Part shown: positions 14,598-50,539 of the stretch, in pieces
Layout of the letters: each line of letters starts with the position of its first letter
How positions within the stretch are numbered: the stretch's first letter is position 1
Origin: Candidatus Nanoarchaeia archaeon
GTDB taxonomy: Archaea > Nanobdellota > Nanobdellia > SCGC-AAA011-G17 > DATDVL01
Assembly (NCBI GenBank): GCA_035289925.1
Contig: DATDVR010000005.1
Span: 112,916-176,915 of the forward strand
Direction of reading: 5' to 3'
DNA length: 64,000 nt
The notes under the pieces: generated by a model
What the model was told of the DNA's origin: nothing
Databases searched by the model: none
Seen by the model: only the letters and a program-made list of their open reading frames with translations
Position numbers and translations under genes: made by a program

Positions 14598-14825
14598 TTA
14601 TTGAGGTAGCGCTACCCCAAATTTGGATGGGATTTCTAAACTTTTCAAGTTAGCCTTCTTTGAAAAGCTATGTATCGCAAGCCCTAGAACATCTCCAGTC
14701 TTTTTATCAACCCTCTCAAAGATGCCTTTACCGAGATTCCTAAATACCCCTTTTTTAGTATCGCCTATAGATATCTCTAGAAAATCTGCTTCCTTGTCAT
14801 AATATATCTTTAGTTTTCCTTTCAT
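14598..14825 (-). CDS. DUF2283-family small protein (putative antitoxin partner)
   Basis: …KIYYDKEADFLEISIG…GDVLGLAIHSFS matches the DUF2283 pattern; 4-nt overlap with the upstream DUF4258 gene. Confidence 0.55.
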   Translation of the reverse strand: MKGKLKIYYDKEADFLEISIGDTKKGVFRNLGKGIFERVDKKTGDVLGLAIHSFSKKANLKSLEIPSKFGVALPQ

Positions 14826-15124
14826 CTTATTTTGTCTGTATAAAAACTTGTTATTATAAAACCTTTGCCGTTTAAATATTTTACTGAAATAAACAGATAT
14901 TGTTTCATATCTTTGTAGTATCTAAAATAAAGCCCAACATTTTTATCTTCATCGTATCCGATTATTTTATGAGGTCTTTCTAAAGTTTCTTTGATAAATT
15001 CTAATTTCCCTTGCATTATTGGATGTTTCATTATATGCTTGAATCTTTCACTTGTCAAATAAATTTTTCTTCTTGTAATATCTATTGTTTCAAATATGAT
15101 ATTCATGAGATAATAAGATTTCAA
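14822..15124 (-). CDS. DUF4258-family small protein (putative toxin partner)
   Basis: …LTSERFKHIMKHPI…GFIITSFYTD resembles DUF4258; a canonical two-gene overlapping cassette. Confidence 0.55.
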   Translation of the reverse strand: MKSYYLMNIIFETIDITRRKIYLTSERFKHIMKHPIMQGKLEFIKETLERPHKIIGYDEDKNVGLYFRYYKDMKQYLFISVKYLNGKGFIITSFYTDKIR

Positions 15125-15259
15125 AGTTTAATATGATTTACTCAAGAAAATTTGAAAAGCTTGCATTGCCATTAAAATTATTTTAATTAAATTGCAAGAT
15201 TTATTAATAAATCAAATTTTTGCGGAATTTCTATAATAAAGTTGAATTAAGAAAAAAAG

Positions 15260-15367
15260 TGTCGGGGACAGGATTTGAACCTGCGTAGGCACTAAGCCAC
15301 AGGATCTTAAGTCCTGCGCATTTAGTCCTTCTTTATATGAAGTTTGACCGAGCTCTGCCACCCCGAC
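15260..15367 (-). tRNA. tRNA-Leu (anticodon UAA) with ~21-nt insertion in the D-loop (putative non-canonical intron)
   Basis: Acceptor GTCGGGG/CCCCGAC, anticodon arm CAGGA-CTTAAGA-TCCTG, long variable arm TGGCTTAGTGCCTAC, T-arm GCAGG-TTCAAAT-CCTGT. The region between the D-stem halves (GCA…TGC) is about 35 nt where about 13 is normal. Confidence 0.6.
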
Positions 15368-15409
15368 ATTGAACTAAAGCAAGAAAAACTTTATTTATAA
15401 AACTAGTGG

Positions 15410-15721
15410 TTACCTGCTTCTTTTTGATTGATATTCTCTCTTTAAAACCAACAAGCCCCAGATGTACAATCCAGAAATTATAATCAAAAGAATGCCTTCA
15501 ATCTTCTTGAAGACCATGTCTGTAAAAAAACCATAGTCTATGCCTATTTCAATCATTCTTCTAGTAAAAACCAAAGCAAAGGCCCATGTAAATGCCAGCC
15601 ACGATACAGCCCTTGGAGTTTTTCTTACAAAAAGATAAATCTGAAAAGATAGGAAAGCTGCAATAAATGAAAGTATGCTATGAACTAAAACAGTAACCAA
15701 TGAGCCTAATTCTTCAGCCAT
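15410..15721 (-). CDS. small integral membrane protein
   Basis: 103 aa with three predicted TM helices. Confidence 0.5.
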   Translation of the reverse strand: MAEELGSLVTVLVHSILSFIAAFLSFQIYLFVRKTPRAVSWLAFTWAFALVFTRRMIEIGIDYGFFTDMVFKKIEGILLIIISGLYIWGLLVLKREYQSKRSR

Positions 15722-16725: not shown

Positions 16726-17736
16726 ATGAAAAATAGTCCTAAAGATATCGGAAAGAAAAACGTACTAAGAGATTCGGAGAATCTGGATCCTAAAGGTTTG
16801 AAAGAAGTTCATGGATACGACTTCAATAATGGGGTAAATTATGATAAAATGTTTGAAGCTTACGCATCAACAGGATTTCAAGCAACCCACTTAAATGAAG
16901 CCATTCAATTGATTAAAAAAATGAGAGAGGAAAAATGCACTATCTTTTTAGGATACACTTCAAGCATGATTTCATCTGGCTTAAGAGATGTTTTCAGATA
17001 TTTAGTTGAACATAAATTTGTTGATGTTGTTGTAACAACTGCAGGTGGAATTGAAGAAGACATAATTAAATGCATAAAACCATTTTTACTTGGAAAGTTT
17101 TCAATGTCTGGTGAATATCTAAGAGAGAAAGGTATCAACAGGGCTGGAAATGTCTTGATTCCTAATTCCAGATACTGCGCTTTTGAAGATTTTTTTGTTC
17201 CAATTTTAAAAGAGATTGTTGAAGAACAGAAGAAGACTGGAAAAGTTTATGCAACAAATGACTTAATATGGAAACTGGGAGATAAAATAAACAATAAAGA
17301 GTCAATCTATTACTGGGCAAACAAAAACAAGATACCTGTTTTCTGTCCTGCAATAACTGATGGTTCTATTGGGGACATGATGTACTTCTTTTCCTATGAC
17401 AATCCAGAATTAAAAATTGATTCTGTTGCCGACATAAGAAAATTAAACGACATTGCAATAACTGCCAAGAAAACTGGACTGATTATATTAGGTTCTGGTG
17501 TAGTTAAGCACCACATCTTGAATGCAAACATGATGAGGAATGGAGCAGATTATACAGTTTATGTGAATACTGCTGAAGAATATGACGGAAGCGATGCTGG
17601 GGCTAGACCAGATGAAGCTGTTTCATGGGGGAAGATACTTCCAGATGCTAGAGCTGTAAAAGTACATGCAGATGCAACTTTAGTATTTCCTATAATAGTT
17701 GCTGAAACTTTTGCTAAGGAAAAAAGCCTAGGGTAG
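16726..17736 (+). CDS. dys: deoxyhypusine synthase
   Basis: DHS blocks [66 protein letters not shown]. Confidence 0.9.
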
Positions 17737-17810
17737 GAATTGCACCTACGACCTCAGGTTAATTCGCAAATGATACGAAACCCGTGCTCCACTAATTAAG
17801 CTACCTAGGC
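17725..17810 (-). tRNA. tRNA-Thr (anticodon CGU) with 13-nt canonical intron (37/38)
   Basis: Acceptor GCCTAGG/CCTAGGC, D-stem GCTT/GAGC, anticodon stem CGGGT/ACCTG. Loop TTCGTA then intron TCATTTGCGAATT (17761..17773); TTCG pairs with intron CGAA, flanked by 3-nt bulges (a BHB-like fold). T-loop TGCAATT with G55, as in the other Thr tRNA. Confidence 0.65.
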
Positions 17811-29724: not shown

Positions 29725-30838
29725 TCAAGGATAGCTAATATTCAGAAGCTTAAGATATTTGTTTAATTCAGCGGTTGAGATTTCACCTGGAAAGTAATCA
29801 TTAAGCAGTTTTATTACTTTCTTTCTTAGACTAAAGGTGTTTGCATTTTGAGCATAACCGTTCCAGCCGCAGAAAGAACTGTATATCTTATCATAAGTAA
29901 TTCTTCTAGAATCGTAAAGCTCCTTGTATTTTTCAATTCTTTTAGACAATTTCCTCTTATTTATCTTTCTTAGAAGCTTGTGGTAATAAAAAATCCTAAA
30001 ACCTAAAAAATTAATGCCTTTATTCAAATTTATTATTTTAGATTTACTAGGATGCAGTTCCAATTTCAAGTTTTCTTTTAAAAAATCATCAATCGCCCCC
30101 CCCCCTTATTTTTAAAGTTTCTTTAGAAGAATCTAAAATGATAAAATCATCAACATACCTAATATAATATTCTGCTTTTAAATTATGTTTTACGAATTGG
30201 TCTAGTTCATTAAGATAAATATTAGCAAAAAATTGTGATGTCAAATTACCTAATGGCATTCCTATTCCTTTTACTTTAGAATTGAAATTATTTAAGATCT
30301 TGCTTATAAGCCAAATAACTTTTTCATCTTTAATCTTGTTCTTTAAAACATTCAATAAAACTTCATGTGAAACTTCGTCAAAATAATGCTTAATATCAGC
30401 TTTAAAAACATAGCATTTTTTCCTGTTATTTTTACTTACTTTTCTCTTGAAATAATCAAATCTATTCAAGGCCTTTAAGTTTCCTTTGCCTTTTTGATTG
30501 GCGTAGGAATCATGAATGAAAGATTTACTTAAGATAGGTTCTAAAATATTGCACAAAGCGTGATGAACTATTCTGTCTCTAAAATCTGATTTAGAAATTT
30601 TTCTGGTTTTTGGATCTCTTAATATAAATGTTCTTAAAGGTAAAGGATTGTAAGTGTGAAACAATAATTCTAATCTTAGTTCTTCCAAATTTTTATCCAA
30701 ATCCTTTTCAAATTCCAATACATAAAGCTTTTTAGATTTTCTTTTCTTAGCTCTCTTATAAGCCATCAAAAGATTAGTGTAGCTGCAAATCTGCTTCCAC
30801 AAGTTATTGTAAGTCTTCATTGTTAAAAGCCATAGCAT
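29725..30838 (-). CDS. DGR reverse transcriptase, split by a frameshift in a C10/G10 homopolymer (ORFs 30089..30838 + 29725..30069)
   Basis: RT domains 1-7: …RDRIVHHAL…, FKADIKHYFDEV, DGR-diagnostic motif 4 LGNLTSQ (SQ rather than SP), YVDD box YIRYVDDFII, thumb …GINFLGFRIF…. The two ORFs abut at the run of 10 C (30096..30105). Confidence 0.85.
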
Positions 30839-30846
30839 TTGTTAGG

Positions 30847-30932
30847 TTATTCCAACATAACGCCCATTGTTGTTGAAGTTGTTGTCGCCATTAAGACCGT
30901 TGTTGTCATCGTTACCAACATAAGACAAGCGC
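30847..30932 (-). repeat. DGR template repeat (TR)
   Basis: 86-bp repeat 9 bp upstream of the RT start. Its minus-strand sense is AAC-codon-rich (…GNDDNNGLNGDNNFNNNGRY…). It aligns with VR 31273..31358 with 17 mismatches, all at TR adenines. Confidence 0.9.
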
Positions 30933-31135
30933 AAGCAAAATAGCTCTCTTACCTTCTATATCACTGTTGCTTCACATTTTCGACTAGTTACTAAGTGTTG
31001 CAACTGAATTTTATGGCTACTCTATGCCCTAGTAAAAGAGCGTGTAGCCTAACAATTCTTAACTTCATAACAATAAGTTACTCATTAGTTAAGCTATGCT
31101 AAGGCAAAATAACGATAGAATCTAATCTTATAAAA

Positions 31136-31972
31136 TTATTGGTAAAGCTTTATTATTGTCTTTTCAAAATCTTCTCTTGTTGAATCTGCAACGAAAGGTT
31201 TTGAAACTCTTAAAATCTCTTCTAAAGTTGGTGTCTTTATTTCCTGTGGAGATTTTTGCGCGCCGACTGCACGTACCCCAACAAAACGCCCATTGCCGCT
31301 GAAGTAGTTGACGCCATCAAGACCGCCGAAGTCAACGCCACCAACATAAGACAAGCGCCCTAAATTCTTTTGTTTTATATCTTTAGCTTCATTAAACCTA
31401 TGCCAGCTTCCTAGTGTATTAACTCTATAAGTTTCCGTTGCTTTCTTGAAATAAGCTGAAGCCCTTTCAACGCTGCCAGATTTTGCTAAAACTATGTCAT
31501 TTTTTATCCATTCTTCTTGTGTAAGCCTTTCTGACTTTGCTTTTTGCGCATTGCTTAAAGGCATTATAACTGCATAATTTCTTGGAAGCTTTGAATCTCC
31601 ATTTTTTCTTAAATCTTTTATAGAAACTACTGCCCTTTCATCTGATTCTTCAAGAACGGCTTTAAGCTCGTCATCTGTGACTTCAACAAAACCATAATCT
31701 AGTTGGTTTTTTCTTTTTGCCCTTATTGTATCTGGAGTGAATACCTTTGTTCCATGCTCGATTACTGCAAGCTTACTTCCTTTTGAAGCATATTCGGCTC
31801 CATTTGGAATATACCAAGTATTGAATGGCAGTTCATTATTAATTCTTGCCTGAAGTATCTCTGGAGAAGTAAATATTGTCTTAAGCTCTCTTTGAGCTGT
31901 TTCTAAAGCAACAGCTAAAACTGAATTATAAACTGGCAATAGTTCTCTTTTCTCTAGAGTTGAGTTTAGCAT
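31136..31972 (-). CDS. DGR target (variable) protein with C-terminal FGE/C-type-lectin-like fold
   Basis: C-terminal RVNTLGSW…(VR: LSYVGGVDFGGLDGVNYFSGNGRFVGVRAV) resembles FGE-sulfatase/CLec-fold DGR targets (RVxRGGSW…GFRxV). The VR sits at aa about 199-227 of 278. Confidence 0.85.
   Translation of the reverse strand: MLNSTLEKRELLPVYNSVLAVALETAQRELKTIFTSPEILQARINNELPFNTWYIPNGAEYASKGSKLAVIEHGTKVFTPDTIRAKRKNQLDYGFVEVTDDELKAVLEESDERAVVSIKDLRKNGDSKLPRNYAVIMPLSNAQKAKSERLTQEEWIKNDIVLAKSGSVERASAYFKKATETYRVNTLGSWHRFNEAKDIKQKNLGRLSYVGGVDFGGLDGVNYFSGNGRFVGVRAVGAQKSPQEIKTPTLEEILRVSKPFVADSTREDFEKTIIKLYQ
31273..31358 (-). repeat. DGR variable repeat (VR) inside the target gene
   Basis: 86 bp, 69/86 identical to the TR; all 17 differences are plus-strand T in the TR (an A in the coding sense) against C, A or G in the VR. 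Confidence 0.9.
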
Positions 31973-50426: not shown

Positions 50427-50539
50427 GGGCCTGTAATTTAACCAGGATCAGAATGCGAGGCTTCGGTTTGGCCTTTGGCTAGATTTAATGCCTATCTTGG
50501 AGAAACCTTGATATCCAGGTTCAAATCCTGGCAGGCTCA
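50427..50539 (+). tRNA. tRNA-Arg (anticodon UCG) with ~38-nt intron at 37/38
   Basis: Acceptor GGGCCTG/CAGGCTC (one G·U), D-stem ATTT/GAAT, anticodon stem CGAGG/CCTTG, loop CTTCGG, T-arm CCAGG-TTCAAAT-CCTGG. Exon CTTC pairs with intron GGAG next to 3-nt bulges (BHB-like); intron about 50467..50504. Confidence 0.55.

Follow-up and report, generated by a model that had tools for sequence, protein, structure and literature searches.

A probable 22-nt D-loop intron in the only tRNA-Leu(UAA) gene detected in an archaeal genome

The minus strand of the window (the whole stretch of DNA that was analysed, 64,000 nt) carries at 15260..15367 what is very probably an interrupted gene: the only tRNA-Leu(UAA) gene detected in the genome, split by a 22-nt archaeal D-loop intron of the protein-spliced kind. 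A non-canonical intron in the D-loop had been proposed in the original prediction. This reading is supported by an HBh' motif in the register that would restore the tRNA, by the occurrence of the intron in nine further genomes and by compensatory changes among the copies.

The tRNA-Leu(UAA) gene and its insertion

On the minus strand, 15260..15367 reads as a class II tRNA. As had been predicted, its acceptor, anticodon, variable and T arms are canonical, and the D-stem GCA...UGC, expected to surround about 35 nt rather than about 13, indeed encloses 35 nt. The gene and its flanking signals comprise the following elements:

15260..15367, minus: tRNA-Leu(UAA) gene, 108 nt including the discriminator A, CCA not encoded (sequence reading)
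Minus: acceptor stem GUCGGGG/CCCCGAC, then U8 G9 (sequence reading)
Minus: D-stem GCA...UGC, enclosing 35 nt versus the usual ~13
Minus: anticodon arm CAGGA-CUUAAGA-UCCUG (sequence reading)
15307..15309, minus: anticodon UAA (sequence reading and ARAGORN on the intron-deleted form)
Minus: variable arm, 15 nt (sequence reading)
Minus: T-arm GCAGG-UUCAAAU-CCUGU (sequence reading)
15260, minus: discriminator A (sequence reading)
15394..15401, minus: TATA-like box TTTATAAA, putative promoter, upstream of the tRNA gene by 27-34 nt
15252..15258, minus: run of seven T directly 3' of the gene, putative terminator

We infer that the TATA-like box and the T-run act as promoter and terminator of the gene. 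A similar element, tttataaa, is found at a like distance upstream of orthologues. The flanking ORFs are located at 14822..15124 and 15410..15721.

ARAGORN called two tRNAs in the window, neither of them at 15260..15367. With introns allowed it called 33 tRNAs in the 16-contig genome, none at the locus and no Leu(UAA) elsewhere. Rfam at gathering thresholds yielded four matches in the window, again none at 15260..15367, and in a permissive Rfam search of the window the locus was matched only by the tRNA-Sec model, with 27.2 bits (cut-off 47) and a 35-nt D-loop insertion. The general tRNA model of Rfam scores 17.7 bits at the locus, the weakest of its 37 matches in the genome. The genome comprises 916 kb with 33% G+C and is 88.5% complete; our searches of it found no second Leu(UAA) gene. 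UUA is its commonest leucine codon (7373/19,497, 37.8%, in 500 ORFs of at least 200 codons), and a working Leu(UAA) tRNA is therefore needed. Since default ARAGORN and the Rfam tRNA model skip the gene, genomes of this group may seem to have no decoder of their most-used leucine codon, and intron-bearing tRNA genes missed in this way bias counts of the tRNA complement. As a lead only, the host may have a small DPANN-type, Woesearchaeota-like genome, because the nearest Atlas clusters of its EndA are labelled Candidatus Woesearchaeota.

The exons, the intron and the elements of the predicted splicing motif are arranged as follows, with nt numbers counted along the pre-tRNA:

15344..15367, minus: 5' exon, nt 1-24 (acceptor 5' strand, U8 G9, D-stem 5' strand, D-loop to GGUCAA)
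15322..15343, minus: candidate non-canonical D-loop intron, 22 nt, nt 25-46, at about position 21/22 (motif and comparison)
15260..15321, minus: 3' exon, nt 47-108 (A, D-stem UGC, anticodon, variable and T arms, acceptor 3' strand, discriminator)
15346..15349, minus: central helix H, 5' strand GGUC, nt 19-22, taking in the D-loop bases G18 G19
15343..15345, minus: bulge 1, AAA, nt 23-25, 5' cut predicted after nt 24
15339..15342, minus: inner helix h', 5' strand CUUC, nt 26-29, covarying with its partner
15332..15338, minus: intron terminal loop AUAUAAA, 7 nt, nt 30-36 (fold)
15328..15331, minus: inner helix h', 3' strand GAAG, nt 37-40
15324..15327, minus: central helix H, 3' strand GACU, nt 41-44
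15321..15323, minus: bulge 2, AAA, nt 45-47, 3' cut predicted after nt 46

Bulge 1 is a true bulge between H and h'. Bulge 2 is located between H and the D-stem: it abuts the D-stem strand UGC, whose partner GCA is found six unpaired bases from H. Six unpaired D-loop bases, GAGCUC, face bulge 2, and the outer helix h is 0 bp long. The locus thus has the 4-bp exon/intron helix H, the two 3-nt bulges and the inner helix h' of at least 2 bp (here 4) of a BHB motif. The strict hBHBh' form in addition has an outer helix h of at least 2 bp opposite bulge 2; because this helix is missing we assign the motif to the relaxed HBh' class. In the excerpts of the literature available to us, strict hBHBh' is the published substrate of alpha4 and alpha'2 EndA.

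For the motif search we built a scanner on the geometry given in passages of PMC4090602, in which a 4-bp helix is flanked by two 3-nt bulges providing the splice sites and, in canonical introns, the first two anticodon bases pair into the central helix; the cut was set after the second base of each bulge. Run on the same genome, the scanner found the 37/38 introns of Ala(UGC), Asp(GUC), Thr(UGU) and Thr(CGU), all canonical, in their correct register; in each of them h' was 2 or more and h was 5 or more. At the locus a loose scan returned 17 candidates, and a relaxed BHB match alone therefore means little. Only one candidate leaves a tRNA detectable by ARAGORN once it is removed, namely H GGTC/GACT with AAA in both bulges, h'=4 and h=0. 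When nt 25-46 are deleted, an 87-nt tRNA-Leu(taa) with all stems intact is called with a score of 120.0. The tRNA scan and BHB-motif search that had been suggested with the original prediction thus gave a tRNA call only after removal of the intron, together with an HBh' motif. An alternative fold with the extra bases at 37/38, which would have spoken against the prediction, is not applicable since the 7-nt anticodon loop and the 5-bp stem are both unbroken.

In an ARAGORN deletion scan 332 of 1352 variants were called as tRNA, and a deletion of about 22 nt restores the tRNA. The best scores (121.6) were obtained for deletions of 24-25 nt starting at nt 12-16, which would remove G18 G19. As ARAGORN is indifferent to D-loop content, it is unable to fix the intron boundaries; those predicted here rest on the motif and on the comparison with orthologues.

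The minimum free energy fold of the precursor contains H, bulge 1 and h' (-39.7 kcal/mol, z = -3.27, 0/200 shuffles as stable). We counted how often a central helix of 4 bp, with 3-nt bulges and an inner helix of 4 bp or more, arises in a register restoring the tRNA. Shuffling the 22 inserted bases gave 33 such cases in 200,000 trials, and random inserts drawn from the genome composition gave 151 in 200,000. Chance does not account for the motif.

Further tRNA introns were noticed elsewhere in the source genome (G000). Outside the window, Arg(CCU) at G000:C2:7175-7272 (+) has a 22-nt D-loop intron with H GCUU/GAGU, bulge 2 AAA, h'=5 and h=1, and Val(UAC) at G000:C5:28839-28940 (-) a 28-nt D-loop intron with H GCGG/CCGU, bulge 2 AAA, h'=6 and h=2; ARAGORN with introns miscalls these two as Leu(gag) and Lys(ttt), respectively. 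Also outside the window, Gly(UCC) at G000:C2:11308-11405 (-) carries a T-arm intron of 26 nt whose motif is strict (h'=8, h=5) and scores 119.3 in ARAGORN when spliced. According to the same scanner, Ser(CGA) and Lys(CUU) also have non-canonical introns, as has a gene with two introns, called Ile(UAU) by ARAGORN. Within the window, Thr(CGU) at 17725..17810 (-) is split by a canonical intron of 13 nt whose motif is strict (h'=2, h=5), and Arg(UCG) at 50427..50539 (+), 113-115 nt long, reaches an ARAGORN score of 111.2 when a 38-nt intron (h=5, h'=0) is removed. Finally, removal of a 20-nt intron at about 30/31 from a class II Leu tRNA outside the window, G000:C11:4662-4767 (+), gives an ARAGORN score of 118.3 and, in the splice register used, the anticodon AAG. 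An A34 is uncommon in archaea. In G003 the anticodon of the related Leu gene (L032) is GAG.

A diversity-generating retroelement was observed in the window at 30089..31972 on the minus strand:

30089..30838, minus: reverse transcriptase ORF (Pfam RVT_1, E = 1.2e-18)
30852..30932, minus: template repeat of the retroelement, 81 nt
30935..31103, minus: Rfam RT-16 RNA, 90.7 bits, between the repeats
31136..31972, minus: variable-repeat ORF, 278 aa, no Pfam match
31278..31358, minus: variable repeat, 83% identical to the template, near the C-terminal end of ORF 31136..31972

Those differences between the two repeats that were compared by eye are at template T on the plus strand, that is A on the coding strand.

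Occurrence and conservation across the order

Occurrence was surveyed by pattern searches over 240 genomes of the order. The pattern GGTCAAN{1,31}GGACTTAAG matched in 70 of the 240 genomes, the reversed-pattern control giving 10 matches. The 70 matches comprise 57 uninterrupted genes (GGTCAA, 7 nt and GGACTTAAG), 9 genes with an insertion and 4 sequences other than tRNAs; the 170 unmatched genomes are not evidence of absence, as the pattern fits only genes that have one specific D-loop and no break in the 5' anticodon arm. At this site the insertions in the 9 pattern-matched genomes are 19-30 nt long. The non-tRNA matches in G066, G108 and G132 were recognized as such when read, and the one in G052 was judged so solely from a matched string identical to that of G066. 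A second pattern, GGTCAAACTTCN{3,11}GAAGGAC, was found in 5 of the 240 genomes (reversed control 0), and its match in G099 proved not to be a tRNA when read.

Together with a tenth copy in G003, found beyond the GGACTTAAG pattern matches, a D-loop intron at the same site is present in 10 genomes belonging to 5 families of the order:

Family f1: G000 (source genome), G003
Family f4: G076
Family f22: G105, G113
Family f28: G128, G140, G145
Family f7: G180, G184

Uninterrupted members are also present in each of the five families. In a first sample, in which 30 loci were returned for 60 relatives, we found 14 Leu(UAA) orthologues, 12 of them without an insertion in the 5' half. In Leu(UAA) of G042 a 24-nt intron is found at another place of the D-loop, and Leu(UAA) of G029 has a 25-nt intron near position 8/9. 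In G003, which belongs to the same family as the source genome, a 22-nt insertion is located at exactly the same site and shares 15 of its 22 bases (counted by hand). The D-loop of G001, a congener of G003, has no insertion, and cutting the G003 gene in the same register yields the D-loop of G001. We also noticed that Leu(UAA) of G003 (L035, G003:C9:40200-40800) carries two insertions in the D-loop and another two around the anticodon loop, four in all, and that Leu(UAA) of G001 (L034, G001:C16:13900-14500) has only the two in the anticodon arm. The anticodon-arm insertions of both genomes have in common direct repeats of the anticodon-loop region; the strict scanner resolved no motif in them.

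All 10 copies have one layout. The 5' strand of H is GGUC without exception, followed by bulge 1 AA(A/U), an h' of 4-6 bp with a loop of 4-11 nt, the 3' strand of H (GACU, GACC or GGCU, variants that always pair), bulge 2 NNA and a 3' exon starting with (U/C)G. The terminal loop varies freely in sequence and length, and the outer helix h is missing in 10 of 10. Cut in this one register, every copy yields the uninterrupted consensus GGUCAA + A + (U/C)G.., and the predicted spliced D-loop equals that of the 57 uninterrupted orthologues. In bulge 1 the first two bases are always AA and the third is A or U; in bulge 2 the third base is A in all 10 copies and the first two vary. Because the bulge bases vary only on the intron side, we place the probable cut after the second base of each bulge, within the ambiguous AAA. 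G180 and G184 would also allow a register one base away, which was rejected: it gives a D-loop 2 nt short of the consensus and cannot form in the window sequence. With the D-loop intron removed (and the canonical intron where present), ARAGORN calls Leu(UAA) in G105 (116.6), G180 (117.8) and G184 (120.9).

Covariation was counted in nine aligned copies, G076 being excluded since MAFFT misplaced its 11-nt loop. All 72 helix cells pair, including 36 of 36 in H alone. Three of the eight pairs are changed on both sides, all of them in h' (three quarters of its pairs), as illustrated by CUUC/GAAG, CUUU/AAAG and AAUC/GAUU. The h' of G076 is wholly different (TGAGGT/ATCTCA). Sliding the partner strand by 1-3 columns reduces pairing to 31-64%, and none of 500 shuffles reached the observed pairing and covariation, figures which are not probabilities as the copies are related sequences.

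With boundaries and conservation at hand, further details of the original prediction can be judged. An extra segment does exist, its size and place being 22 nt at 15322..15343 and not about 21 nt at 15326..15346; the sequence CTTCATATAAAGAAGGACTAA, assigned to 15326..15346, is actually found at 15322..15342. The CTTC/GAAG hairpin described for it is present in the minimum free energy fold and covaries. A partial repeat between the segment and the anticodon arm (AGGACUAA against AGGACUUAAG) had also been pointed out. These sequences are correctly given, and their resemblance to the anticodon arm is incidental: relatives have GGACC or UGGCU, and the likeness is explained by the need of GAC(U/C) to pair with GGUC. 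We rejected mimicry of the anticodon arm by the intron since the repeat is not conserved among relatives.

Splicing enzymes and alternative explanations

The genome encodes a single EndA, a 197-aa ORF (193 aa when counted from the first ATG) that combines the N-terminal and catalytic Pfam domains in one alpha4-sized protein (PF01974 99.6 bits, PF02778 52.1 bits). A phmmer search of 3259 six-frame ORFs of the 88.5% complete genome found no paralogue that could act as a second subunit. One further hit (E = 0.0011), a lysine-rich membrane-like protein with a low-complexity alignment, was rejected as EndA. The missing part of the genome may still encode a second subunit. The best relatives of solved structure are the alpha4 enzyme of M. 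jannaschii, 1a79 (E = 1.6e-33), and the alpha subunit of N. equitans, 3iey_A (E = 8.2e-33). Aligned with 1a79 over query residues 47-197, this EndA shows one gap of a single residue, located outside the loop; the 6 extra residues that 3iey_A carries just before the catalytic His are not in this EndA.

According to the parts of PMC5829648 and PMC3488258 available to us, cleavage of relaxed motifs is tied to EndA loop insertions, and loop residues 90-98 of N. equitans (K93, K94, K96, R97), renamed L3, are the proposed basis of broad specificity. No such insertion, whether CSL/L1, ASL/L2 or the N. equitans-type L3, was seen in this EndA, the CSL/ASL site being assessed only through the M. jannaschii alignment and aligned lengths versus 3p1z_B. 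We looked for EndA in five other intron-bearing genomes: four contain one each, of like size, with the loop KPGE(D/E)HAKW at the same loop length, and none was found in G128 (82% complete). A single RtcB is encoded in the source genome (533.7 bits).

We infer from these genes that EndA would cut and RtcB would join the tRNA-Leu(UAA) precursor. As sequence and comparison show, D-loop GGUC, including G18 G19, pairs in the precursor with intron GACU to form the 4-bp central helix. An AAA bulge parts this helix from the intron hairpin CUUC-AUAUAAA-GAAG, and a second AAA leads into the D-stem. The lone EndA would then cut after the second base of each bulge, that is after nt 24 and after nt 46, and ligation of the exons by RtcB would give the ordinary D-loop GGUCAA-AUGC, so that the tRNA could fold and be charged. 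G18 G19, held in H before splicing, would be freed for the tertiary fold. The D-stem, following directly on bulge 2, might replace the outer helix by stacking.

Apart from splicing, the 22 nt could be retained, leaving the mature tRNA-Leu(UAA) with an expanded, hairpin-bearing D-loop. The motif lacks an outer helix and the EndA lacks the loop insertions which the part of PMC5829648 available to us links to relaxed-motif cleavage, two points in favour of retention. It is nevertheless very unlikely in our view, given that the conserved parts are those of a splicing motif (the 4-bp helix, the two 3-nt bulges and the covarying h') while the loop varies freely. Judging from established tRNA structure, G18 G19 would be held in H if the tRNA stayed unspliced, which would block the D-loop/T-loop contact; moreover, 57 orthologues have no insertion and the congeners G001 and G003 differ in it. 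We give even less credence to a decaying pseudogene hit by an insertion. A genuine Leu(UAA) decoder would then have to be encoded in the unassembled 11.5% of the genome, for which there is room in an 88.5% complete genome with only 33 tRNA genes called by ARAGORN. Against this stands that every stem is intact, that a TATA-like box is found upstream and a T-run downstream, that the insertion has been kept spliceable in 10 genomes of 5 families, that the exons are 89% identical to those of an uninterrupted orthologue over 64 aligned bases, and that the locus is identical in independent samples.

Those samples come from 11 public runs containing the surrounding 2 kb, all of them DNA metagenomes from groundwater or soil. 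We compared contigs from 4 DNA runs, none of which is flagged as a possible source sample. In run X4 a 2835-nt contig spans 15294..15520 and in run X6 a contig spans 15323..15520, each with 0 differences, and no joints or indels are listed at the locus in the 4 compared runs. Many contigs of other organisms in these runs match the 3' exon up to 15323 and then continue with the complement of uninterrupted D-loop bases. That in each of the 4 compared runs metagenome contigs break within the conserved 3' half of this tRNA would fit an assembly or chimera artefact, the least probable of the alternatives and a negligible one: the X4 and X6 contigs cover intron and 5' exon, and homologous introns are found in 9 other assemblies. 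The 22-nt insertion is real and no assembly artefact.

Splicing of a 22-nt D-loop intron is hence the reading we prefer. The intron is probably dispensable, because close relatives do without it, and it appears to persist only while spliceable. This locus raises the question of how a motif without an outer helix is dealt with by an alpha4-sized EndA that has none of the known specificity loops. We put forward as a tentative and rather doubtful proposal that such an enzyme, devoid of the three known loop insertions, cuts HBh' sites, of which the order has others besides this family, and that its broad specificity has arisen a fourth way; the conserved KPGE(D/E)HAKW catalytic loop or D-stem stacking in place of the outer helix may be its basis. 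If true, the published link between EndA loop and intron diversity would be incomplete.

Comparison with known tRNA introns

The locus adds a well-supported, covarying candidate D-loop intron that is conserved across five families of a DPANN order. Its close relatives differ in carrying the intron, which makes it useful for the study of intron gain and loss. Non-canonical introns of Crenarchaeota, among them Thermoproteales, were reportedly described by Marck & Grosjean in 2003, Sugahara in 2007 and 2008 and Fujishima in 2010. Such introns with BHB, HBh' or hBH motifs are known from the tRNA genes of Crenarchaeota and especially of Thermoproteales, according to the passages of PMC4090602 and PMC4033280 at our disposal. 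As far as these passages go, the intron described here resembles them in being short, probably protein-spliced and located outside 37/38, with predicted cuts in 3-nt bulges next to a 4-bp helix. Further shared traits are the relaxed HBh' form, the presence of several introns per gene and genome and a sporadic occurrence among relatives. Differences concern the enzyme, here a single alpha4-sized EndA and in Crenarchaeota, in the accounts available, an (alpha-beta)2 form with a Crenarchaea-specific loop, as well as the host, which here may be a small DPANN-type, Woesearchaeota-like genome. In addition, intron families common to several tRNAs are described in the same passages for Thermoproteales, whereas the three D-loop introns of this genome show no likeness by eye.

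For DPANN archaea, the sections of the literature we drew on list different EndA types: epsilon2 in ARMAN-2 (PMC3239211, PMC3488258), (alpha-beta)2 in N. equitans and alpha4 'harbouring L3' in Pacearchaeota and Woesearchaeota (PMC5829648). Within the same limits, non-canonical introns have been published for ARMAN-2 too (PMC3488258, PMC4090602, PMC4033280), and in DPANN with alpha4 enzymes incomplete tRNA sets are said to imply unidentified disrupted genes (PMC5829648). The locus shares this superphylum-level setting and is probably such a disrupted gene. Unlike the L3-harbouring alpha4 enzymes of that account, as far as it is available, the EndA found here, when aligned with that of M. jannaschii, shows no insertion where the N. 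equitans loop is located.

A recent Asgard census (bioRxiv 10.64898/2026.10.13.758758) reports, in its available part, D-arm insertions in tRNAs missed by tRNAscan-SE, with a median of 22 nt among those missed. The likeness extends to a D-arm insertion of about 22 nt overlooked by standard annotation and to BHB-type boundaries, at which the Asgard insertions are enriched, HBh' being treated there as a canonical class. The lineage is another one: the census comprises 90 Asgard genomes plus 18 reference genomes, and its text does not mention 'DPANN' (0 occurrences). We found no description of this tRNA-Leu(UAA) D-loop intron family in the literature searched, the supplement of PMC5829648, possibly with a list of Woesearchaeota tRNAs, being outside its scope. 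This kind of intron has thus already been published for DPANN, Thermoproteales and Asgard archaea, and the tRNA-Leu(UAA) family is a new instance of it.
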